Source: Gemmatimonadaceae bacterium
GTDB taxonomy: Bacteria > Gemmatimonadota > Gemmatimonadetes > Gemmatimonadales > Gemmatimonadaceae
DNA: 64,000 nt
Direction: 5' to 3'
Assembly (NCBI GenBank): GCA_039924785.1
Contig: JBDTAE010000164.1
Span: 4,101-68,100, forward strand
The position numbers and the translations under genes were made by a program. The notes below the pieces were generated by a model. The model was not told the DNA's origin. It saw only the letters and a list, made by a program, of their open reading frames with translations, and did no database searches. Below are positions 53,795 through 64,000 of this stretch, piece after piece (positions within the stretch are counted from its first letter, which is position 1; every line of letters begins with the position of its first letter).

Positions 53795-55750
53795 TCAACG
53801 CGGTGGGACGCCAGTCAGCATTCGCGCCGCCGTCACGCGATCGCCGAGTTGGATTCTGTCGACCGCGTCCATCCCGCGGATCACTCTGCCGAGTGAGGTG
53901 AAGTCGCCTTCGTTGTGCGGCTGGGGAGTGTGATTGAGCGTGTAGCCGGGGCTTCCGGTGTCGAGCCCGGCGGTGGCCCACGCGAGGTTCGCACGCGTGA
54001 GGCGATGGCGATTCACCTCGTCGCGCAGGATGTTCTCGTCGCGAATCGTTCGTTGCTGATCGACGAAGTCCGGAACCACGCGCGTGAATTCTGTGCCGAC
54101 GATGGCGCGCGATTCGATCGTTCTGACGAAATCGTCGACGGCGAGCGGCGCGTCGCCAGGATACAGCTCGAGCTCGATCGGGCCGCGCGGTGTTTCCCAA
54201 ACTGCGATGGGATGCGGCTTGCCTTCGTAATCAGGAACGATCCATCGCTCGACGATGGCTCGGTACGCCGATGCCGGTCGTTGCGCCGGAGCGGCCGCCG
54301 GCCACGCCGGCCACGCCTGCCACGCCTGCCGCGCCGCGGCTCCGAACGCACGCTCGACGTCGCGTCGTAGTGAGGTGCTCGACGGTGGCGTGGTGAATCT
54401 GGCGAAGAAGATCGAAGCACCGGCACCGTGGCGACGTTGCACGCCCGCAACAGCCGCCGCTGCGGCAGAGGCGATCGCGGTCGATGAATCGGTTCGAGTC
54501 TTGTCGAACACATCGAGCAGGAATGGCAGATCGCTCGTGTCACCCCAAGCGCCCATCGCGCGCAACGCCGCCGCGCGCACGATCGGATCAGATGACGAAA
54601 CATCCGCGCGGCGATCGGCCATCGACCGAGTCGTGTCGCGGGCAATCGCCTGCAACGCGGTCGTTCGGCAATACCCCGGCGTGTCTCCGGCGATCTTCTT
54701 TGCGGCGGCGAGTGCTTCCGCCGGCGCGAACGCTTGGAGCGACTGCATGGCAGTGAGTCGCACGGCGCAGGGACGATTGCCCGCGGTTGCGCCCACGAGG
54801 CGAGCGACGCTCGAGTCGCCGCGCATTCGGCCGAGTCCCTCCGCAGCACTGACGGCAATCCAGGAATCGTTCGCGCGGAGACCGGCATACATCGCGCTGA
54901 ACGCGGGGCCGTCGCCGTATGTCGCGAGTGCGCGGATCGCTTCGGTCCGCACGCGGCGATCGGGATCTTTCGCGGCGGCGAGCAGGAGAGTTTCCGCCGC
55001 GACGGTGTTGTTACTCGAGTCGGCCTGTGGCTTGGTGAGACCGCGCACCGCCCATGAGCGGACGAGCGCCGATGAGTCTTTGCTCATGACCAGCAGTGTT
55101 GCGACCGCGGCTGGGTCTCGCGGGCGAAACAGTGCCCATGTCGCGCGCCAGCGTATTTCCTCGTGTGTCGAGTGGGTCCATTTTATGATTGGCGCGAGGT
55201 CGCCTCGTGGGAGCGCGCGCCCGATGGAGAGCAGCGCTTCACCGATCGTCGCGGTGTTTCTCGGGATCGCGGTCGTTCGGGCGAGGTACACGGCGAGCGC
55301 GGCGCGAGCGTGCGCGGTTTTCAGTTTTCCGAGGGCCACGGCCGCTTCGGTGGCGACGGTCGGCGCGGATTTCGGGTCGGTAAGTAACGAATCGAGCCAG
55401 GCAACCGTCCCAGTGTCGCGGAGCTGGCCCACGGCGAACACCGTGGTTGCGGCGACGGCGGTGTCGTGGTCGAGCGGGTTCGCGCGGAGCATGGCAATGC
55501 CTCGTTTGTCGGCGATGCGGGCAATCGCGAGGGCCGCTCGGCGTCTGAGTTCCGGGTGCGGGGCAGCGAGGATGCGGCCGAGGTCGTTGGTATCGAGGAG
55601 GCGGCGGTCTTCGAGGAGTTCGAGGCGGGCGATGTCGTCGACGTCGGCCGAGGAAAGTGCGGGGTGTGCCGCGGATCGGGATTGTGCGTTTCCCGGCGCG
55701 GCGATTGCAGCATAGAGGAGCAGGGCGGCGCCGGCGATTTTTGGATGCAT
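53795..55750 (-). CDS. Secreted HEAT-repeat protein fused to a C-terminal cyclophilin-type peptidyl-prolyl isomerase
   Basis: ATG at 55750, signal peptide. About 450 aa of HEAT-like repeats (...RRRAALAIARI..., VRSWAVRGL, VRTEAIRAL, VRAAALRAMG). C-terminal cyclophilin blocks (IELELYPGDAPLAVDDF, F.RVVPDFV.Q, LAWATAGLDTGSPGY). Confidence 0.8.
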   Translation of the reverse strand: MHPKIAGAALLLYAAIAAPGNAQSRSAAHPALSSADVDDIARLELLEDRRLLDTNDLGRILAAPHPELRRRAALAIARIADKRGIAMLRANPLDHDTAVAATTVFAVGQLRDTGTVAWLDSLLTDPKSAPTVATEAAVALGKLKTAHARAALAVYLARTTAIPRNTATIGEALLSIGRALPRGDLAPIIKWTHSTHEEIRWRATWALFRPRDPAAVATLLVMSKDSSALVRSWAVRGLTKPQADSSNNTVAAETLLLAAAKDPDRRVRTEAIRALATYGDGPAFSAMYAGLRANDSWIAVSAAEGLGRMRGDSSVARLVGATAGNRPCAVRLTAMQSLQAFAPAEALAAAKKIAGDTPGYCRTTALQAIARDTTRSMADRRADVSSSDPIVRAAALRAMGAWGDTSDLPFLLDVFDKTRTDSSTAIASAAAAAVAGVQRRHGAGASIFFARFTTPPSSTSLRRDVERAFGAAARQAWQAWPAWPAAAPAQRPASAYRAIVERWIVPDYEGKPHPIAVWETPRGPIELELYPGDAPLAVDDFVRTIESRAIVGTEFTRVVPDFVDQQRTIRDENILRDEVNRHRLTRANLAWATAGLDTGSPGYTLNHTPQPHNEGDFTSLGRVIRGMDAVDRIQLGDRVTAARMLTGVPPR

Positions 55751-56123
55751 AAATGCTTGGTTTTGTGCGTGCAGATTGTACATCAAATTCGGGTGGAGAC
55801 AGATCCGTTCGCCAGAGGATTTTCCGTCGCGAGGGCTCGTAGAGAGGGTCCAGCGCGGGGGTCGATTGACGCAACGATTTTCAGCGTCTTGCGCACAACT
55901 TTCGAACGTCTGATACTCCTTGTGCGTAGACGAATGATAGATGGTGATGGTCGCTCGTCAGTTAGTGGTGAGTTAGTCAGCCGTTTGAACAAACGGGGCT
56001 CCGATGGGTGATATCGCAACGCAGTACAGCGATTTCGAGAGCATAATCGTGCCGCGCCGGCTCGCTCAGAGCCCTGCGCTCGCGGCCGATTTTCATACAT
56101 GTCTTATAGCCGTGTCGGCTCGT

Positions 56124-56160
56124 AGCAGCGGAGTTTCCGCGGTACCGAATCGTCGCTGCT
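56124..56160. repeat. Stem-loop presenting a CCGCGGAA-family motif in its loop
   Basis: 7-bp stem AGCAGCG / CGCTGCT encloses GAGTTTCCGCGGTACCGAATCGT. The 15-mer GCGGAGTTTCCGCGG (56128-56142) is identical to 398-412. About 80 nt upstream of the DUF1592 gene. Confidence 0.65.
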
Positions 56161-56238
56161 GATAGCTTTCAAGGCTTGGGAAGGGCCGCGTTGCGACAAC
56201 CGCGCGCGGAGGTTCGCTGGATCGGGGGATCGTCGATC

Positions 56239-58734
56239 ATGAAGCTTGTTTTTGCCACGACTGCGATCGTTACAGCGGGTGTTGCGTTCACCGTCGGAAC
56301 CGCGACTGGTCGCGACGCGCCTCATTGGACCGCGGGTGCAAAGTCGCTGGCGACCGTGCCGATGCGGACAGCCAAGTCGGTAAAGCGCAGCGCGCCGAAG
56401 GATCCGCGCGCAATCACCAACGCGTTCAACGGCGTCGTCCAGAACTACTGCACCGATTGTCATAGCGACCAGACGCTGTCTGGCAACTTGTCGCTCGAAC
56501 ATTTCGATCTTGATTCGGTCATGATCGATGACCGTCGTGAGGAGTCGGAAAAGCTCATTCGAGAGCTTCGGGCGCACATGATGCCGATTCCCGGCGCGCC
56601 GGTCCCCGCCAATGACTCGCTCGATCTGCTCGTGTCGTTGATGGAGCAGAGGATCGATAAGGCGTCGACAAAGGCCAATCCCGGCACGCGCACGTTCCAG
56701 CGCCTCAACCGGTCCGAGTATGACGCGGTCATCCGCGACCTGCTCGGCCTCGAGTTCGATTCGGGCGAGTATCTCCCGCTCGATACCAAGAGCGCGAACT
56801 TCGACAACATCGCCGACGTGCAGATGCTGTCGCCGACGCTGCTCGAGTCCTACCTGAATGCTTCGTCCGCTGTCACGCGCGCGGCGGTCGGCGACCGTAA
56901 GGCGACGTCGCAGCTCATCAGCTATTACGCGTCGCCGTTTACATCCCAGCACCCGTGGGACCACATTGAAGGCACGCCGTACGGAACGCGCGGTGGAATC
57001 GTCGCCGAGAACATCTTCCCGGCCGACGGTCTGTATTCGTTTCGCATCAACGTATCGGGCGGCGTTGGCACCAAGCTCGAGGACCTCGACATCTCGGTCG
57101 ACGGAAATCAGGTGGCGCTGCTTCATTATGAAAAGGGAACCGACCAGAACCTTGCGTCGGCAGATGCGCCGGCTGGCGCCGACTACGTCAAGAGCGATCC
57201 GATTCAGCTGAAGGCCGGCCAACATCACGTTAGTGTGGCGTTCGTCCGCCGTGGCGATGGTCCGTACGAAGATCTCATCATGCCGCATGGCTGGTCAAAG
57301 GCTTCCAACGGCAACGGGAGCGACGGTACGACCGAGCCGCCCCACGTCATGGAACTCGGCATCGTCGGACCGGTCAAGACGACCGGTATGTCCGAAACGC
57401 CGTCGCGAAAGATCATCTTCACGTGCCATCCGACGGCCGCAGTGGCTCAGCGCGCCTGCGCCGAGCAGATCATCAACAACCTCGGCAGCAAGGCCTATCG
57501 TCGTCCGCTTACGCAGCACGATCGCGACGGGCTGATCAAGTTCTATGACAAGGCGGTCGCGAAAGACGGTTTCGAGGAGGCAGTGCGGGTTTCGCTGCAG
57601 GCCATGCTCGCCAGCCCGTATTTCGTGTTTCGGTTCGAAGCGCCGCCGGCGAACGTTGCGCCGGGCCAGGTCTACGCGATCAACGACTACGACCTTGCGA
57701 CGCGCTTGTCGTTCTTCCTCTGGGGCAGCATTCCGGACGACGAGCTCCTTTTGATGGCGAAGGAGCACAAGCTTTCCGACAAGAAGACCCTGGATGTCGA
57801 GGTCAACCGCATGTTGGCCGACCCGCGGTCGCAGGTGCTGTCGACCCGGTTTGTCTACCAGTGGCTGCGGCTGTCGGATATCGACAAGGTTCGTCCGGAC
57901 GCGTTCTACTTCCCCGATTACAACCAGCAGCTGGCCGACGCGATGAAGACGGAGACTGAGCTCTTCTTCAACGACATCGTTCGCAACAACCACAGTGTGC
58001 TCGACCTGTATACGGCCGACTACACGTTCGTGAATGAACGATTGGCCAAGCACTATGGTATTCCGAACGTCTCGGGCGACGAGTTCCGCAAGGTCACGTA
58101 TCCCGACGACACGCGCCGTGGCTTGCTTGGCCAGGGTAGCGTGCTGGTGCAGACGTCGTTCGCCAATCGCACTTCGCCGACGGTTCGCGGCAAGTACGTG
58201 ATGGAGGTGCTGATTGGAAAGGCACCGCCGCCGCCGCCGCCGAACGTGCCTGGTCTGGACGAGACGTCGGGTGGTAAAGAAGGCCGCCCGCTGACGACCC
58301 GGGAGCGCATGGAGATTCACAGAAAGAACCCCACGTGCCGAACGTGCCATCAGTACATGGATCCGATCGGCCTGGCGCTCGACAACTTCGACGTCACCGG
58401 TAAGTGGCGGTATCGCGAAAACGGCACGGGTCTGGACACGCAGGGCCAAATGTACGACGGTACACCGATCAGCAAGCCGTCCGATTTGACGAATGCGTTG
58501 ATCAAGCGTCCGATTCCGTTGGTGCGGACGTTTACGGAGAACTTGATGGCCTATGCGTTGGGCCGCCGGGTTGAAGATTATGATGAGCCCACGGTGCGCG
58601 CGATCGTACGCGACGCCGAGGCGAATGGTTATAGAGTTTCCTCATTTGTTGTTGGCGTCGTGAATAGCAGCGCATTCCGCAGCAAGCGAGCCGATCCGGT
58701 TGTTTCGGCCGACAAAGACAAAGACCGCCATTAG
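56239..58734 (+). CDS. DUF1592/DUF1587/DUF1588/DUF1595/DUF1585-type protein with an N-terminal c-type heme motif
   Basis: ATG at 56239, signal peptide. CTDCH heme-binding motif followed by LSLEHFD. C-terminal CRTCHQYMDPIGLALDNFD block typical of the DUF1588/1585 end. Confidence 0.75.
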   Translation: MKLVFATTAIVTAGVAFTVGTATGRDAPHWTAGAKSLATVPMRTAKSVKRSAPKDPRAITNAFNGVVQNYCTDCHSDQTLSGNLSLEHFDLDSVMIDDRREESEKLIRELRAHMMPIPGAPVPANDSLDLLVSLMEQRIDKASTKANPGTRTFQRLNRSEYDAVIRDLLGLEFDSGEYLPLDTKSANFDNIADVQMLSPTLLESYLNASSAVTRAAVGDRKATSQLISYYASPFTSQHPWDHIEGTPYGTRGGIVAENIFPADGLYSFRINVSGGVGTKLEDLDISVDGNQVALLHYEKGTDQNLASADAPAGADYVKSDPIQLKAGQHHVSVAFVRRGDGPYEDLIMPHGWSKASNGNGSDGTTEPPHVMELGIVGPVKTTGMSETPSRKIIFTCHPTAAVAQRACAEQIINNLGSKAYRRPLTQHDRDGLIKFYDKAVAKDGFEEAVRVSLQAMLASPYFVFRFEAPPANVAPGQVYAINDYDLATRLSFFLWGSIPDDELLLMAKEHKLSDKKTLDVEVNRMLADPRSQVLSTRFVYQWLRLSDIDKVRPDAFYFPDYNQQLADAMKTETELFFNDIVRNNHSVLDLYTADYTFVNERLAKHYGIPNVSGDEFRKVTYPDDTRRGLLGQGSVLVQTSFANRTSPTVRGKYVMEVLIGKAPPPPPPNVPGLDETSGGKEGRPLTTRERMEIHRKNPTCRTCHQYMDPIGLALDNFDVTGKWRYRENGTGLDTQGQMYDGTPISKPSDLTNALIKRPIPLVRTFTENLMAYALGRRVEDYDEPTVRAIVRDAEANGYRVSSFVVGVVNSSAFRSKRADPVVSADKDKDRH

Positions 58735-58769
58735 TTCGGTAACCACAGGCATCGGGGAGCAAAGGGACA

Positions 58770-60173
58770 ATGAAATTCCTCAGCGGCAAGGCGATGGAAC
58801 GGCGCACGTTTCTCCGCGGCGTGGGCGCAGCAGTCGCCCTGCCATACTTGGACGCGATGGTCCCGGCGTTGGGCGCGATCGGCAAGCGATCGGCTCCGTC
58901 GACGGCAGCCGCGAACAAGACGCGTTTCGTGTGCATCGAGTCGGTGCACGGTGCGGCGGGATCGAATGCGTGGGGCGCCAGCAGAAACCTGTGGGCCCCG
59001 GCGGGCGTCGGCCGCAACTTCGATCTCATTCCTGACAGCGCGTTGTCGCCTCTGGATCCCTACAAGAAGTATTTGACGATCGTCAGCAACACCGACACGC
59101 GCATGGCCGAGGCGTTCGATGCGCCGGAAATCGGCGGCGACCACTTCCGGTCCAGCGCCGTGTTCCTCACACAGTCGCACCCGAAGCAGACGCAGGGTTC
59201 CGATCTGTACGTGGGAACGTCGGTCGACCAACTCGTGGCGCGTCACATTGGCAAGGACACGGCAATTCCGTCGATCCAGCTCTGCATCGAGAACCTCGAT
59301 CAGGCCGGTGGTTGCTACTACAACTACGCATGCGCCTACACCGACACGATCAGCTGGTCGAGCCCGAGCGAGCCACTTCCGATGATCCGCAACCCGCGCA
59401 CGGCGTTCGAGCTGTTGTTCGGCGCCGGCAAGGACAATACGGATCGTAGCGCGCGCCGCCAGGCGAACGAGAGCATCCTCGACTGGATCAGCAGCGAGTC
59501 GAACAACCTCAAGCGCCAGCTTGGACCCGCCGATCGTCAGCGCCTCGAGAAGTATTTCGAGGATATCCGCGAGCTCGAGCGTCGCATTCAGAAGGTCGAA
59601 GCCCGTAATACGAGCGGAGAACAGCGCGATTTGCCTGAAGCTCCTGCTGGTGTGCCGGATTCCTTCGCAGAGCACGTGAAGCTGATGTTCGACTTCCAGG
59701 TGCTCGCGTTCCAGTCGGACATGACGCGCGTCATCTCCTTCAAGACCGGCCGCGATGCATCGAGCCGCGCCTACCCGGAGAGCGGATCGAACAAGGGCTT
59801 CCATCCGGCCTCGCACCACGGCGGAAAGGAATCGGCCATTCTCGATTTCAACCTGATCAACAAGTACCACGTGAGCATGCTTCCATACTTCCTTGACAAG
59901 CTCAAGGCCAGCACGGAAGGCGATAAGGACCTGCTCGAGAAAACGGTCATCGTCTACGGTTCGCCGATGTCCGATCCGAACATCCACGCGCATCGCCGCT
60001 GCCCGCTCATTCTGTTGGGCAAGGGCAACGGTCAGCTGGAGGGCAACCTGCACCTCAAGGCGCCAGATGCAACGCCGATGGCGAACGTGTTCCTTAGCCT
60101 CATGCACAAGATGGGCGTCGACGATCTCAAGTCGTTCGGCGACAGCTCGGGCGAGTTCGCGCTCACGGCGTGA
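58770..60173 (+). CDS. DUF1552 family protein with a Tat signal
   Basis: MERRTFLRGVGAAVALPYLDAM leader. 467 aa. This is the usual downstream partner of DUF1592-type genes. Confidence 0.75.
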   Translation: MKFLSGKAMERRTFLRGVGAAVALPYLDAMVPALGAIGKRSAPSTAAANKTRFVCIESVHGAAGSNAWGASRNLWAPAGVGRNFDLIPDSALSPLDPYKKYLTIVSNTDTRMAEAFDAPEIGGDHFRSSAVFLTQSHPKQTQGSDLYVGTSVDQLVARHIGKDTAIPSIQLCIENLDQAGGCYYNYACAYTDTISWSSPSEPLPMIRNPRTAFELLFGAGKDNTDRSARRQANESILDWISSESNNLKRQLGPADRQRLEKYFEDIRELERRIQKVEARNTSGEQRDLPEAPAGVPDSFAEHVKLMFDFQVLAFQSDMTRVISFKTGRDASSRAYPESGSNKGFHPASHHGGKESAILDFNLINKYHVSMLPYFLDKLKASTEGDKDLLEKTVIVYGSPMSDPNIHAHRRCPLILLGKGNGQLEGNLHLKAPDATPMANVFLSLMHKMGVDDLKSFGDSSGEFALTA

Positions 60174-60212
60174 GCCGTAGTCCGAAAGACGTGATTTAGA
60201 GGATTCTAATAG

Positions 60213-60256
60213 ACGAAGGATCTGCTCTCAAGAGTCATGGTGAGCGGATCCTTCGT
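60213..60256 (+). other. Intergenic stem-loop between the DUF1552 and ankyrin genes
   Basis: 10-bp stem ACGAAGGATC / GATCCTTCGT with an inner GCTC/GAGC pairing. No T-tract follows, so it is not a classical terminator. Confidence 0.4.
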
Positions 60257-60298
60257 TGCGTGGGAACGGGAACGGTACATACGAGAGGGAGAGGCCAC

Positions 60299-62365
60299 AT
60301 GAAACGTTTGACCTTGATCGGCGCACTGCTCGCGCCGATGGTACTTGGCGCTCAGGACAAGGCGAAGTCCGTCGCGCTGCCCCGCCCAGCGACAGCCGCC
60401 CCGGCGACAGCCCCGGTCGTTGCCGATGCCGCCATGAAAGGCGACATCGAAACGGTGCGCAAGCTCATCAAGCAGGGCGCTCCGGTTAACACCGCCCAAG
60501 GGGACGGTATGACCGCGTTGCATTGGGCCGCGGAGCGCGGCGACATCGCGATGGCGAACGCACTGCTCGCGGCGCACGCCAACGTGAAAACGACCACGCG
60601 CATCGGCGATTACACGCCGCTGCACATCGCCGCGCGAAACGGCAATGGCGCGATAGTGACCGCTCTGCTCAAGGCCGGCGCCGATCCCAAGGCGTCCACG
60701 ATGTCCGGCTCCACTCCGCTGCATCTGGCCGCCGCGTCAGGAAACGCCGAGGCAATCAGCGCACTGCTCGATCACGGCGCGGATCCGAACGCCCGGGAAG
60801 CCGCGTGGGGGCAGACGCCTCTCGTCTTCGCCGCAGAATACGATCGGCCGGCGGCGATCACGGCGCTGCTCAAGCACGGAGCGGATCCGTCGATCCGCAC
60901 CAACGTGATCAGCCTGCAGGACGAGGCGGCCAAGGAACAAGCGGCCACCAAGAAGCGCAATGAAATACTTATTTCGTTCGAACCAGAAAAGCACAAGAAG
61001 GACACCGTCAAGACGCCGGCCGACACGATTGGCGGGGGTTTGGGTGGAGCCGGAGCGCCGGCGTTCGGCGTCGCCGGCTACGGCGGACGCGGTCCCAAGG
61101 GTCCGGTGCCGAAAGGTCCGTTCACGCCAGATCAGATTCAGCAAGCCATTAACGCCGGCCGCGAGATCATGCTCGCGCCGATCGTGCCGAAGGGACCGAT
61201 TACCGAATTCGTCGATACGTTGAACGGCGGCGTCGCGGGTTATGCGAAGACGGTTGGCGGCATGGGCGGCATGACGGCGCTGCACCACGCCGCGCGCGAA
61301 GGCAACGTCGCGGCGGTGGATGCACTGCTCGACGGGGGCGCGAACATCAACGACACGAGCTACGTCGATCACACGACGCCACTGCTTTTGGCGGCCATTA
61401 ACGGCCAGTACGATACGGAACTCGAGCTCATCAAGCGCGGCGCCAATCCGAACATCGCGAGCCACCCGAACATGACGCCGCTCTACGCGACGATCAACGC
61501 CGAGTGGGCCCCGAAGTCGCGCTTCCCGCAGCCGCAGGCGCTGCAGGTTCAGAAGTACTCGTACATCGATGTGATGGAGGCGTTGCTCAAAGCCAAGGCG
61601 GATCCAAACGTTCGGCTGACCCAGCAGCCGTGGTACTTCGCGTTCAACAACTGCGGTAACGCGAACTGCGGTCTCGAAAACATCGAAGGCACGAACGCCT
61701 TCTGGCGCGCAGCGTACGCGCTCGACGTGCCGGCGATGAAGCTGTTGGTCAAGTATGGCGCCGACTACAACGTGCCGTCGCAGCGCACTGCGGTGGCGGG
61801 TGGTCGTGGCGGTCGTGGCGGCGGTGCAGCCGCTGGTGGTGCCCGCGCGGGCCGCGCAGGCGCGCCTCCGGATACCGGTGCGGCAGCTGCCGCAGGCAAC
61901 CGCGGTGCACAGGGTGGTGGTCGTGGCGGTGCTCCGCAGGGCCCGCCGCCGCCGCCGGAAATCGAAGCGCTCGCCAAGGCGGCGCCAGTCGGAGCCGGTG
62001 TATACCCGATCCACGCAGCGACGGGTGTGGGCTACGGCAACGGCTTCGCCGGAAACTCGCACCATCATGCTCCTGACGCCTGGATGGCTGCGCTCCGCTA
62101 CCTCGTGGAAGATCTGCATGCCGATGTCAACCAGCGCGACCAGCAGGGCTTTACGCCCATGCATGACGCGGCGGCTCGCGGCGACAACGAGATGATCCTG
62201 TATCTCGTTGCGCACGGCGGCGACGTGAAAGCGGTAACGAAGACTGGCAAGACGACGGTCGATCTCGCAAACGGACCGGTGCAGCGCGTGAGCCCGATTC
62301 CGGAAACAATCGCGCTCCTCGAAAAGCTCGGCGCGGTCAACACGCATCGCTGCGTGTCCTGCTGA
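60299..62365 (+). CDS. Secreted ankyrin-repeat protein with Gly/Arg/Ala-rich inserts
   Basis: ATG at 60299, signal peptide MKRLTLIGALLAPMVLGAQ. Multiple ANK units (GMTALHWAAERGD..., TPLHIAARNG..., TPLHLAAASGN..., TALHHAAREGN..., TPMHDAAARGD...). Low-complexity GGRGGRGGGAAAGGARAGRAG...GGGRGG at about 61781-61962. Confidence 0.85.
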   Translation: MKRLTLIGALLAPMVLGAQDKAKSVALPRPATAAPATAPVVADAAMKGDIETVRKLIKQGAPVNTAQGDGMTALHWAAERGDIAMANALLAAHANVKTTTRIGDYTPLHIAARNGNGAIVTALLKAGADPKASTMSGSTPLHLAAASGNAEAISALLDHGADPNAREAAWGQTPLVFAAEYDRPAAITALLKHGADPSIRTNVISLQDEAAKEQAATKKRNEILISFEPEKHKKDTVKTPADTIGGGLGGAGAPAFGVAGYGGRGPKGPVPKGPFTPDQIQQAINAGREIMLAPIVPKGPITEFVDTLNGGVAGYAKTVGGMGGMTALHHAAREGNVAAVDALLDGGANINDTSYVDHTTPLLLAAINGQYDTELELIKRGANPNIASHPNMTPLYATINAEWAPKSRFPQPQALQVQKYSYIDVMEALLKAKADPNVRLTQQPWYFAFNNCGNANCGLENIEGTNAFWRAAYALDVPAMKLLVKYGADYNVPSQRTAVAGGRGGRGGGAAAGGARAGRAGAPPDTGAAAAAGNRGAQGGGRGGAPQGPPPPPEIEALAKAAPVGAGVYPIHAATGVGYGNGFAGNSHHHAPDAWMAALRYLVEDLHADVNQRDQQGFTPMHDAAARGDNEMILYLVAHGGDVKAVTKTGKTTVDLANGPVQRVSPIPETIALLEKLGAVNTHRCVSC

Positions 62366-62397
62366 GCCGAACGAGTTAAGTATTCTTTAAAGCTGTC

Positions 62398-62643
62398 ATG
62401 CCCGTATTCGAATACAAATGCCGCGCATGTTCGCACAAGTTCGAAGCGCTCGTGCGTGGCACCAAGGTTCCGAGCTGTCCGAAGTGCGTAAGCCCGGACC
62501 TGGATCGCCTGTTGTCGATGCCGGCGGTTCGGTCTGAGACTACCACCGCGTTAGCAATGAAGGCGGCCAAGCGTCGCGACAAGAGCCAGGCGAGTGACGC
62601 GGATCGCGCGCAACGAGAGTACGAGGCACATCACGACGACTGA
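62398..62643 (+). CDS. FmdB-family CxxC zinc-ribbon protein
   Basis: MPVFEYKCRACSHKFE...SCPKC signature. Confidence 0.85.
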   Translation: MPVFEYKCRACSHKFEALVRGTKVPSCPKCVSPDLDRLLSMPAVRSETTTALAMKAAKRRDKSQASDADRAQREYEAHHDD

Positions 62644-62663
62644 GCGCAGCCTGCGAAATGAGA

Positions 62664-62702
62664 GAGAGCCACGTTGACTTCGGTCGTCGTGGCTCTTGTC
62701 TT
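62664..62702 (+). terminator. Probable terminator after the FmdB-family gene
   Basis: GAGAGCCACG ... CGTGGCTCTT stem with an inner GAC-TTCG-GTC (UUCG loop), followed by the moderately U-rich GTCTTGG. Confidence 0.55.
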
Positions 62703-62707
62703 GGACA

Positions 62708-62883
62708 GCTGGCGGCGAGATCAGCCGCGGAGTCCGCGGAATTGTGAACGGCGAAACTCCGCGGATGCAGGAGATTCGTGCACCCCGACTAATTGTTTAC
62801 CCGGCGGCGAGTGCCGGCAAGTTAGCCGCGGAATCCGCTGAGCCCGCGGAACACCGCGGAACACCGCGGAACACCGCGGAATG
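62708..62883. repeat. CCGCGGAA-family repeat island including a 10-bp-phased tandem array
   Basis: GCTGGCGGCGAGATCAGCCGCGGAGTCCGCGGAA at 62708-62741 is homologous to 127-150. CCGCGGA at 62759. TTAGCCGCGGAA at 62822-62833. CCGCGGAACA x3 plus CCGCGGAATG at 62844-62883, with starts at 62844, 62854, 62864 and 62874. Confidence 0.9.
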
Positions 62884-62975
62884 AGTTGGTCGGCCCGATC
62901 GACGGTAACTCGGCGCGGAACTTGGGCTCTTTTGCCGCCGGAGTTGACTGGCGTTCGCCACAGTCCCGCAAATGC

Positions 62976-63003
62976 CAAAAAATGCGACGCCAACATTGGC
63001 GTC
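62976..63003 (-). terminator. Possible terminator for the minus-strand gene ending at 63138
   Basis: On the minus strand, the GACGCCAATGTTGGCGTC hairpin is followed by GCATTTTTT. It lies about 135 nt downstream of the stop. Confidence 0.45.
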
Positions 63004-63137
63004 CCGCGCAATCAAAGACAACACAGACATGAGCTTGGCACTGGCCTCTCGAGCGCCGAGGAAGCCGATCCGCGCTCGTCGCAGTTTCCTTCCGCCAAAC
63101 TCCGTGGCTAAGGCGCGCGGGCCTGTTACCGGAAGAA

Positions 63138-64000
63138 CTACCGGCCGCCCGTCGTCGGTGAGCCCTCGGCCGCAAGCATCAGCTGCATGTGATCCTGCGC
63201 CTGTTGAAGGCCGCCTTCCCCCGGATCGGTGGCCGTGATGCGACCATCGCCGTTGAGGTCGGCGCCAGAGGTGAGCTGTGCCGTAATTGAAACCAGCTGG
63301 CTGACCAACGCGGCCGCCTCGGCAGCCGTGGTCGCTGCCTGGATGCGTTGCGCGATCGACAAGGCCTGGTCGCAGCGATCGAGTGTGTTCTTCGACACCA
63401 TGACCACGTGCCCAGCGTGGAGAATCACGTTCTGCGAAGCGCCGGGGACCTTTGCCGCGAGCTCGATGTGCGTCTCGACGCCCAGTGTAGCCTTCTTGAC
63501 GCCGTAGCCAAGTCCGGGCCCCATAGGCATGATGGTCGGGTCGATGGCGTTGATGACGTGGCCGGCGTGCAGCTTCATCATCTCGAGGTTTGTCGGAGTA
63601 CGCTGGGCAAGCGCGGCGTGCTGTGCCGCGGTCCGGGCCTCAGCCAATGCGACCGGCAGCAAGCCCATCTTGTTCGGCGTGTCGTTGAAGCTGTTCATGA
63701 CGTGGCCGATGTGCGTCCCGACCATGCCGGCCGGCACCTTGACCGTTGGCGCGGCAGCGACGACGCCGGGCGTGGGGGCACCGGTCAGCTGCGCGATGAT
63801 GACGTCGAACGACCTGCGGAGCGTGGAGTCGGTGCTGATGACGAAAATCTTCTTCTGGTAGTCGGCATCGGTGAGCCCGTTCTTCTGCAAAATGCCCGCG
63901 ACCTCGGTACGAAGCTTTACCTGCAGCTGCTCCTGCGCTTCGGGCTTTTTGTTTCGAGCCTGTGCAAACTGCAGATCGGCCGAGTCGTGCGCCTGCGTGA
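63138..64000 (-). CDS. Hypothetical protein with three H-x-G-H-V motifs and an EF-hand/dockerin-like DxNxDG loop (N-terminus outside the window)
   Basis: The frame stays open from 63138 to the window edge; I hand-translated 63891-63998 and found no stops. Motifs THIGHV, LHAGHV, LHAGHV, then DLNGDGRITATD near the C-terminus. Confidence 0.6.
   Translation of the reverse strand, partial: TQAHDSADLQFAQARNKKPEAQEQLQVKLRTEVAGILQKNGLTDADYQKKIFVISTDSTLRRSFDVIIAQLTGAPTPGVVAAAPTVKVPAGMVGTHIGHVMNSFNDTPNKMGLLPVALAEARTAAQHAALAQRTPTNLEMMKLHAGHVINAIDPTIMPMGPGLGYGVKKATLGVETHIELAAKVPGASQNVILHAGHVVMVSKNTLDRCDQALSIAQRIQAATTAAEAAALVSQLVSITAQLTSGADLNGDGRITATDPGEGGLQQAQDHMQLMLAAEGSPTTGGR

Follow-up and report, generated by a model that had tools for sequence, protein, structure and literature searches.

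An exported DUF1592-DUF1552-ankyrin gene triad and two accessory genes in Gemmatimonadota and Acidobacteriota

Pairs of adjacent genes encoding a PSCyt3/PSD (DUF1592-type) protein and a DUF1552 protein were reportedly described in Planctomycetota and Verrucomicrobiota by Studholme et al. in 2004. We know of no function assigned to either protein type since their definition in that year. Here we describe a locus in a 64,000-nt stretch of DNA (the window; positions 4101-68100 of contig C164 in a Gemmatimonadaceae-type assembly from soil of 4.9 Mb and 371 contigs) in which such a pair, with the same domain architecture and the same adjacency, is followed by genes for an exported ankyrin-repeat protein and an FmdB-family zinc ribbon. 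A first-pass annotation of this DNA had held that the pair recurs without an assigned function. This agrees with a published account in which PSCyt3 genes adjoin a family of unknown genes, the function of either being not known (He et al. 2017, PMC5615132). The DUF1552 protein RB9955 of R. baltica appears only in a list of general stress-induced genes. In the literature searched we found no functional study of DUF1552, DUF1592 or DUF1501/1549/1553, and no description of an ankyrin partner, a zinc ribbon or a gene like the HxGHV gene reported below in association with the pair.

Several described proteins resemble single components of the locus. AnkB of Pseudomonas aeruginosa is, as summarized in a later article, required for optimal activity of KatB (Howell 2000, cited in PMC12754779). 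Bd3460 of Bdellovibrio bacteriovorus is a periplasmic ankyrin protein that serves self-protection as an inhibitor of peptidoglycan DD-endopeptidases (PMC4686830). Cbp2D of Cellvibrio japonicus is an exported protein that carries c-type cytochrome domains, DUF1587 and a carbohydrate-binding module (CBM), and it is implicated in polysaccharide oxidation (PMC8981238). The first-pass annotation considered an exported ankyrin protein unusual in bacteria. Export is supported for the protein in the window; however, AnkB with KatB, Bd3460 and RARP-1 are precedents for such a location.

A conserved triad of exported proteins

The four genes of the locus share the + strand and are separated by intergenic gaps of 35, 125 and 32 nt, an arrangement already given in the first-pass annotation and borne out by a check of the coordinates and open reading frames. 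In order, they encode a DUF1592-type protein predicted to carry two haems (56239-58734, 831 aa), a DUF1552 (HXXSHH) protein with features of export by the twin-arginine translocation (Tat) pathway (58770-60173, 467 aa), an exported ankyrin-repeat protein of a family that we call 'long' (60299-62365, 688 aa), and a four-Cys zinc ribbon of the FmdB family (62398-62643, 81 aa). The first three were identified from open reading frames and Pfam matches, and the fourth from matches to TIGR02605 and PF09723.

A scan of GTDB species genomes returned 79 related loci, which come from Gemmatimonadaceae, Gemmatimonadales, Longimicrobiales, Palauibacter, about eight metagenome-assembled genomes (MAGs) of Acidobacteriota (Vicinamibacterales-type) and one MAG labelled Cyanobacteriota. 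Nearly all of these loci show the gene order DUF1592-DUF1552-ankyrin, often as two or three tandem triads, and the number of triads per genome ranges from 1 to 12. For genome-level counts we used a phylum sample of 151 Gemmatimonadota genomes and a comparison sample of 201 Acidobacteriota genomes. In the Gemmatimonadota sample, 31 of the 151 genomes have DUF1552 and 32 have a match to the ankyrin protein's C-terminal half, with the same family distribution. Among the matches listed, an ankyrin gene lies 1.1-2.3 kb downstream on the same strand for 96 of the 131 DUF1552 genes in this sample, and 148 of the 150 ankyrin matches listed adjoin a DUF1552 gene. We re-examined 20 of the 35 DUF1552 genes without a listed ankyrin match; all 20 have an ankyrin gene directly downstream, one of them of a short type. 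This brings the number of Gemmatimonadota DUF1552 genes directly followed by an ankyrin gene to at least 116 of 131 (the 96 listed plus the 20 re-examined).

The proteins of the triad also share a history. Pairwise distances of the three proteins are correlated (r 0.80-0.87 in 72 triads; Mantel p = 0.002 for DUF1552 against ankyrin), with DUF1552 the most conserved (mean distance 0.31) and the ankyrin protein the least (0.45). The triad therefore duplicates and diverges as a block. The genome of the window itself contains a second complete triad, on contig C100, that was missing from the first-pass account. There a second DUF1592-DUF1552 pair is followed by an overlapping paralogous ankyrin gene whose product ends in ...NSHACKSC, while that of the window ends in ...NTHRCVSC, and no FmdB gene is adjacent. 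The triad is a real, conserved unit inherited as a block.

The same association extends to a second phylum. DUF1552 occurs in 41 of the 201 Acidobacteriota genomes, and alignment to the Pfam profile, a criterion independent of the ankyrin gene, divides these proteins into two types. A long ankyrin gene lies downstream of 75 of the 84 genes of the type found in the window and of 0 of the 66 genes of the other ('type A'). In a tree of DUF1552 the window type forms one group with 100/100 support on a long stem. The recurrent linkage of a secreted ankyrin protein to the pair, raised by the first-pass annotation as a candidate, is thus near-universal for this DUF1552 clade in two phyla. We rejected the reading that type-A pairs have no ankyrin protein at all, as the search had used only the C-terminal half of the long family and a shorter ankyrin gene was present in 10 of 18 fetched loci. 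The short protein (about 500 aa, with a signal-peptide-like N-terminus) is encoded within 5 kb of the pair in those 10 of 18 sampled loci; its gene varies in position (downstream, upstream or divergent). The C-terminal CxxC tail is missing from it, and it is collinear with most of the long-family profile, at positions 13-195, 283-454 and 511-574.

A few loci depart from the usual arrangement. Four (L044, L053, L056 and L064) contain a DUF1592-DUF1552 pair without its own ankyrin gene, immediately followed by a complete triad, and one ankyrin protein might serve two pairs there. In a long-read MAG (L006 8587-9944) DUF1552 is called as fragments of 282 and 124 aa between intact DUF1592 and ankyrin genes, which is probably a frameshift error or a pseudogene. 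The DUF1552 of the triad in the MAG labelled Cyanobacteriota (L066, JAIEMQ010000072.1) groups inside Acidobacteriota with 100/99 support, and an error in the label or in the binning of this contig is probable. One genome of the Gemmatimonadota sample (G142) has an ankyrin-family match and an HxGHV match without a DUF1552 match; the system may survive there in part, or its DUF1552 gene may have escaped the search.

The DUF1592-type protein has the features described in the first-pass annotation, namely 831 residues, a signal peptide (Sec; MKLVFATTAIVTAGVAFTVGTATG), a CTDCH motif and DUF1587/1595/1592/1588/1585 blocks. The five corresponding Pfam domains, PSD3, PSD5, PSD4, PSCyt3 and PSD2 (PF07626, PF07637, PF07631, PF07627 and PF07624), occur in the canonical order and score 69.8, 70.5, 157.2, 114.4 and 75.3 bits, all above their cut-offs of 23-34. 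The CTDCH motif (56449-56463, residues 71-75) lies in a class-I-like cytochrome c region, and an MMP sequence at 56578-56586 supplies a candidate distal ligand, M115-P116; with the signal peptide and the Cytochrom_C_asm proteins encoded in the genome, the region has what is expected of a c-type cytochrome. A second haem motif, CRTCH (58336-58350, residues 700-704), which the first-pass annotation lacked, lies inside PSCyt3. Residues C71, C74, H75, M115, P116, C700, C703 and H704 are invariant in 80 homologues, and the Cys pair C396 and C407 is also invariant. We infer from these motifs a two-haem c-type protein with the domain order cytochrome region, PSD3, sandwich, PSD5, PSD4, PSCyt3 (containing CRTCH) and PSD2.

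An AlphaFold2 model of this protein has a mean predicted local distance difference test score (pLDDT) of 84.9 and a predicted template-modelling score (pTM) of 0.87. The sandwich, a beta-sandwich at residues ~225-383, resembles modules of the CBM6/35/36 families (Foldseek probability 1.0, target template-modelling score (TMt) 0.5-0.64, E-value 4e-3 to 7e-2). The large helical part of the model has no significant analogue in the Protein Data Bank (PDB) by Foldseek, and a sequence search of solved structures gave nothing significant for this protein.

The second protein was annotated in the first pass as a Tat-exported DUF1552 protein, and the evidence bears this out. The match to PF07586 (DUF1552/HXXSHH) has an E-value of 2.5e-84 and scores 283.9 bits against a cut-off of 30, and the HPASHH sequence is present. 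The twin-arginine motif ERRTFLRG precedes a hydrophobic stretch (ERRTFLRGVGAAVALPYL), as in Tat substrates, and the genome encodes TatC (contig C51) as well as cytochrome c assembly genes. In 79 DUF1552 homologues the residues R11, R12, H60, D124, H125, H345, S348, H349, H350, D402, N404, H406 and H408 are invariant.

The structure of DUF1552 was also modelled with AlphaFold2 (pLDDT 72.8, pTM 0.78). When the model was compared with the PDB using Foldseek, the top 50 matches were all sulfatases or other members of the alkaline-phosphatase superfamily (E-values from 1.6e-4, probability ~1, template-modelling score (TM) 0.30-0.37). The signal for the core fold of this superfamily is weak but uniform, and DUF1552 models as an alkaline-phosphatase/sulfatase-type fold. 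The C/S-x-P/A-x-R formylglycine motif of S1 sulfatases is found neither in the window protein nor at a conserved column in the 79 homologues, and a sequence-level search of solved structures returned no significant match. DUF1552 is likely the catalytic subunit.

The third protein has the 688 residues, ankyrin repeats, signal-peptide-like N-terminus and low-complexity insert described in the first-pass annotation. Its N-terminus reads MKRLTLIGALLAPMVLGAQ, and the insert is rich in G, R, A and P. Ankyrin repeats (PF00023, PF12796) are matched in seven stretches with 189 bits. The protein consists of an N-terminal ankyrin block, a low-complexity linker, a second ankyrin-like half with a W/Q-rich region in which W403, Q411, Q418 and W445 are conserved, and a C-terminal H-x-C-x-S-C tail. 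The tail cysteines C685 and C688 (CVSC at 62351-62362) are invariant in 69 homologues, nearly all of which begin with a positively charged stretch followed by a hydrophobic one, as in signal peptides. As with AnkB, an exported ankyrin protein is encoded beside a predicted haem protein, and in the related loci its gene always adjoins the pair. More than 6000 homologues of the ankyrin protein were found. Similarity to the ankyrin effector families of Dot/Icm type (AnkY, AnkH and others in NCBIfam) is that of generic repeats, with a best score of 101 bits against a cut-off of 600.

We considered an inhibitory or immunity role for the ankyrin protein, which would then, in the manner of Bd3460, hold DUF1552 or the cytochrome inactive in the cell's own periplasm. 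One ankyrin gene is adjacent to each enzyme pair, and its product is the fastest-evolving of the triad and tracks its own pair, as cognate inhibitors do; Bd3460 is a precedent (PMC4686830). However, we saw no sign that the pair is toxic or is secreted beyond the periplasm, and no secretion-system genes appeared among the recurrent neighbours of the related loci. At 600-700 aa the ankyrin protein is also larger than typical immunity proteins, and its invariant C-terminal CxxC suggests a role of its own. We consider an inhibitor unlikely.

A zinc ribbon and an HxGHV protein that accompany the triad

The fourth gene was annotated in the first pass as an FmdB-type zinc ribbon, and it scores 50.9 bits with TIGR02605 against a cut-off of 31.3. 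The ribbon cysteines (CxxC...CxxC; C8, C11, C27 and C30) are invariant in alignments of the subfamily, which is further characterized by a conserved basic tail of about 40 residues (S-x-P-x-V-K-S...AAKRRD...Q-x-x-Y-E-x-x-H-D-D). The protein is presumably cytoplasmic because it has no signal peptide. In the genome of the window it is the only copy of its subfamily (phmmer), and normally there is one copy per genome, independent of the number of triads.

At the level of genomes, the subfamily follows the system closely. Full-length matches (residues 1-80) occur in 28 of the 31 system-positive Gemmatimonadota genomes and in 0 of the 120 system-negative ones. The negatives include 23 genomes of the window's own family, which have at most ribbon-only matches over residues 1-45, the part to which alignments with generic FmdB paralogues are confined. 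All five out-of-phylum triad genomes tested carry the subfamily. In Acidobacteriota, full-length matches are found in 22 of the 41 DUF1552-positive genomes and 0 of the 160 negative ones, and the positives include a few genomes with only type-A DUF1552. In the samples searched, the FmdB subfamily is restricted to genomes with DUF1552 systems. A profile search of 1.84 billion representative proteins (clusters at 50% identity) gave 565 matches at E<=1e-10. Among the members listed we saw no informative fusion; nearly all are stand-alone proteins of 80-140 aa.

Linkage of the ribbon gene to the pair, as suggested by the first-pass annotation, holds as co-occurrence within genomes, but adjacency is facultative and applies to about half of the copies. 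A DUF1552 gene is found within 6 kb of 14 of the 29 copies in Gemmatimonadota, and the remainder are among unrelated genes. In the 79 loci the flanking DNA sufficed to check 77 ankyrin genes, and for 15 of these an FmdB gene follows within 1.5 kb. The gap between the ankyrin and FmdB reading frames is 5-30 nt in close relatives, and in Longimicrobiales the FmdB gene stands between tandem triads. Some of the loci have it on the opposite strand. Copies distant from a triad had no conserved partner beyond close relatives, their neighbours being a peptidase S9, an amino-acid permease or a sortilin/BNR protein. In the f6 genomes the zinc-ribbon gene itself adjoins a sortilin/BNR gene (L088).

A second accessory gene, also absent from the first-pass account, converges on the module from the - strand. 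Its 3' part occupies 63138-64000 of the window, and in full the gene spans 67241-68239 of contig C164, with its stop codon at 67238-67240 (window 63138-63140). The encoded protein is exported and 333 aa long. It carries a signal peptide, a weakly DUF4168-like N-terminus, a DLNGDGRIT loop and the HxGHV motif in three places, and searches of Pfam, NCBIfam and the PDB gave no significant match. Clustering of the flanking genes showed an HxGHV gene (product ~347 aa) directly after the ankyrin/FmdB end and convergent with it in 26 of the 79 loci. HxGHV proteins are encoded in 23 of the 151 Gemmatimonadota genomes, comprising 22 of the 31 system-positive genomes and one of the 120 negatives, which itself has an ankyrin match. 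In Acidobacteriota they are found in 5 of the 201 genomes, all among the 41 DUF1552-positive ones (5/41 against 0/160). There is usually one copy per genome. The HxGHV protein shows the same pattern as the zinc ribbon, more weakly, and is a candidate fifth component. In one type-A locus (L138, G130:C2:854699-861616) five genes share one orientation; they encode a DUF1592-type protein, a type-A DUF1552, a short ankyrin protein of 506 aa, a diverged ribbon of FmdB-like type and an HxGHV protein.

Nine loci (L035, L044, L046, L047, L049, L056, L057, L064 and L067) have a gene for a weakly DUF4168-like protein of ~143 aa on the opposite strand just after the ankyrin gene, and it sits between the ankyrin and ribbon genes where a ribbon gene is present. 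Because the N-terminus of the HxGHV protein is also weakly DUF4168-like, one protein may occur here in a split form and a fused form.

It is conceivable that the functional unit consists of the three exported proteins only, and that the ribbon and HxGHV genes are unrelated to it and accompany the triads through common descent or local synteny. The C100 paralogue and many other loci have no adjacent FmdB gene, and half of the FmdB copies are found among unrelated genes. In addition, a ribbon in the cytoplasm has no obvious way to act on proteins of the periplasm. Against this stands the absence of the full-length ribbon from all of the 120 and 160 system-negative genomes, those of the window's own family included, and its presence in system-bearing genomes of distant families and of another phylum; adjacency of the ribbon gene also recurs across lineages and orientations. 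On balance, we think it rather improbable that the triad acts without these genes.

A proposed mechanism

Genes for nutrient uptake are found near some of the triads. SusC-like TonB receptors flank the triads in nine loci (L039, L041, L043, L049, L051, L060, L061, L079 and L081), seven of which have SusD, and sortilin/BNR proteins of about 1000 aa adjoin them in ten (L016, L041, L043, L051, L062, L063, L073, L074, L078 and L084).

The locus is one copy of a conserved envelope system with a core of three exported proteins and with two accessory genes. We propose the following roles for its parts, and we hold the case for the explanation as a whole to be evenly balanced. DUF1552 would be the catalytic metalloenzyme, built on an alkaline-phosphatase-type scaffold with a metal bound by the invariant His/Asp cluster, and export by the Tat pathway would permit both its folding and its loading with metal in the cytoplasm. 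The DUF1592-type protein would use its CBM-like module to bind the substrate, probably a polymer or glycan that enters through TonB-dependent receptors, and would relay electrons by way of its two haems. For one of these two proteins the ankyrin protein may be a dedicated adaptor or chaperone in the periplasm, as AnkB is for KatB. The zinc ribbon might serve every triad of a genome, since it is cytoplasmic and usually single-copy, either as a factor for the maturation or export of DUF1552 or as a regulator. The accessory genes, ribbon and HxGHV, often close one of the triads, as in the window.

The first-pass annotation suggested a redox or substrate-processing function, which the two CxxCH motifs and the alkaline-phosphatase-type fold fit without proving. 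The SusC/SusD context and the presence of DUF1587 in Cbp2D are consistent with a redox-assisted processing of polymers that the cell imports. The proposal is at its weakest here because we know of no enzyme of the alkaline-phosphatase fold that uses a cytochrome.

Several points weigh against the proposed system. To our knowledge the enzymes of the alkaline-phosphatase superfamily catalyse hydrolysis or group transfer, and none is known to depend on a cytochrome, so the role of the haems is unexplained. The structural matches of DUF1552 are weak (TM 0.30-0.37) and 83 of the 467 modelled residues (~18%) have a pLDDT <50. The resemblance of the sandwich to CBMs is likewise weak, with E-values of 4e-3 or worse, and most loci have neither SusC/SusD nor BNR neighbours. 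In about half of the genomes the zinc ribbon is encoded far from any triad, and no full-length ribbon match was obtained in three of the triad-positive Gemmatimonadota genomes or in 19 of the Acidobacteriota genomes with DUF1552. Finally, related genomes are not independent, so there were fewer independent events than the counts of co-occurrence suggest; however, the ribbon pattern spans two phyla and several families with mixed presence and absence.

An alternative is that the module is a respiratory or detoxifying electron-transfer unit, in which DUF1552 is a redox metalloenzyme that oxidizes or reduces a small substrate, inorganic or organic, with electron exchange between it and the two-haem protein, and neither hydrolysis nor polymer processing takes place. 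Such a unit would account for the two invariant haem motifs, and a His-rich invariant cluster combined with Tat export is typical of cofactor-bearing redox enzymes. However, the modelled fold of DUF1552 is that of enzymes of phosphate and sulfate transfer, and we know of no redox member of the alkaline-phosphatase-type fold. Diversity of substrates also explains better than a single respiratory role why a genome may have up to 12 triads, and why a CBM-like module and SusC/SusD neighbours are found; a purely electron-transferring module seems doubtful to us. That the four genes are a chance juxtaposition without shared function is contradicted by the neighbourhood and co-occurrence counts, the correlated distances and the support for the DUF1552 clade, and we regard it as extremely improbable.

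Returning to the proposed envelope system, its boldest form would be a new multi-copy periplasmic system in which a His-cluster protein of alkaline-phosphatase-type fold carries out redox-coupled chemistry on imported polymers, wired by the CBM-bearing cytochrome and assisted by the ankyrin adaptor, with HxGHV as a further part and the ribbon as a new factor for maturation or Tat export. In this complete form the idea is speculative and probably wrong in at least some part.

Remaining features and comparison with known systems

Upstream of the module and divergent from it is a gene (53795-55786, - strand) for an exported fusion of HEAT repeats and a cyclophilin, the domains of which were confirmed with Pfam. 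No homologue was found in the 79 related loci, so we rejected this protein as a member of the module, and it is probably unrelated to the triad.

The 125-nt spacer between the DUF1552 and ankyrin genes (60174-60298, + strand) contains a strong stem-loop, with a minimum free energy of -43.8 kcal/mol and a z-score of -3.5. In the related loci the ankyrin reading frame either overlaps DUF1552 or begins no more than a few tens of bases away. The spacer therefore looks like a local, locus-specific insertion, and it may uncouple translation of the ankyrin gene. The sequence occurs once in the genome, which ruled out a repeated mobile element as the origin of the hairpin.

The first-pass annotation placed a terminator at the end of the module. 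A strong hairpin is indeed present 3' of the FmdB gene (62660-62700, + strand; GAGAGAGAGCCACG...CGUGGCUCUU), and folding of 62644-62712 gives -30.2 kcal/mol with a z-score of -2.5. However, the U-tract that follows (UUGUCUU) is weak, and a simple terminator scan did not list the hairpin, which is best described as terminator-like. A scan of 55000-64000 with Rfam gave no matches. Farther downstream of the four genes, positions 62820-62883 hold a tandem CCGCGGAACA array.

With these results an unexplained DUF1592/DUF1552 pair becomes a defined system of four or five parts. The definition rests on one DUF1552 clade that is near-constantly accompanied by an exported ankyrin protein, and on a ribbon and an HxGHV protein that are nearly confined to the genomes with the system. 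The system reaches 12 copies per genome in MAGs of Gemmatimonadota and Acidobacteriota from soil and marine sources, and at least one carrier, Roseisolibacter sp. H3M3-2 (L031), has an isolate-style strain name instead of a MAG label. The uncharacterized pair was known before; the ankyrin partner, the ribbon subfamily and the link to HxGHV were not found in the literature searched.

The components can be compared with known proteins one at a time. The best structural matches of the DUF1552 model are the S1 sulfatases and the alkaline-phosphatase superfamily; it differs from S1 sulfatases in that it lacks the C/S-x-P-x-R motif and in that a His-rich cluster replaces their Asp/Asn Ca site. Cbp2D, like the DUF1592-type protein, combines cytochrome, DUF1587 and carbohydrate-binding parts in an exported multidomain protein. 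However, its architecture includes CBM2, YceI-like and FN3 domains, and no DUF1552 or ankyrin partner has been reported for it. The zinc ribbon shares its four cysteines with the FmdB family (TIGR02605/PF09723) and differs by the 40-residue conserved tail of its subfamily.

For the ankyrin protein the best functional analogy is the pair of AnkB and KatB, in which the gene for an exported ankyrin protein likewise shares an operon with that for a periplasmic haem protein. The partner described there is a catalase and not a c-type cytochrome together with a protein of alkaline-phosphatase-type fold, and the two are likened by description, not by sequence. AnkB is also much smaller than the ankyrin protein of the window. 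Bd3460 is similar in that a periplasmic ankyrin protein is encoded with an exported enzyme, which Bd3460 binds; unlike the ankyrin protein of the window, it has no partner with a haem or an alkaline-phosphatase-type fold.

As a whole, the locus is closest to the other DUF1592/DUF1552 pairs. The type-A pairs of Acidobacteriota have the same three kinds of protein, and an FmdB-like gene adjoins some of them (L122, L138), but their ankyrin protein is shorter (~500 aa), variable in position and without the C-terminal CxxC, whereas that of the window is long. Compared with the pairs of Planctomycetota and Verrucomicrobiota, the pair in the window belongs to a distinct DUF1552 clade that is accompanied by an exported ankyrin protein of 600-700 aa with a CxxC tail, a zinc ribbon and an HxGHV protein.

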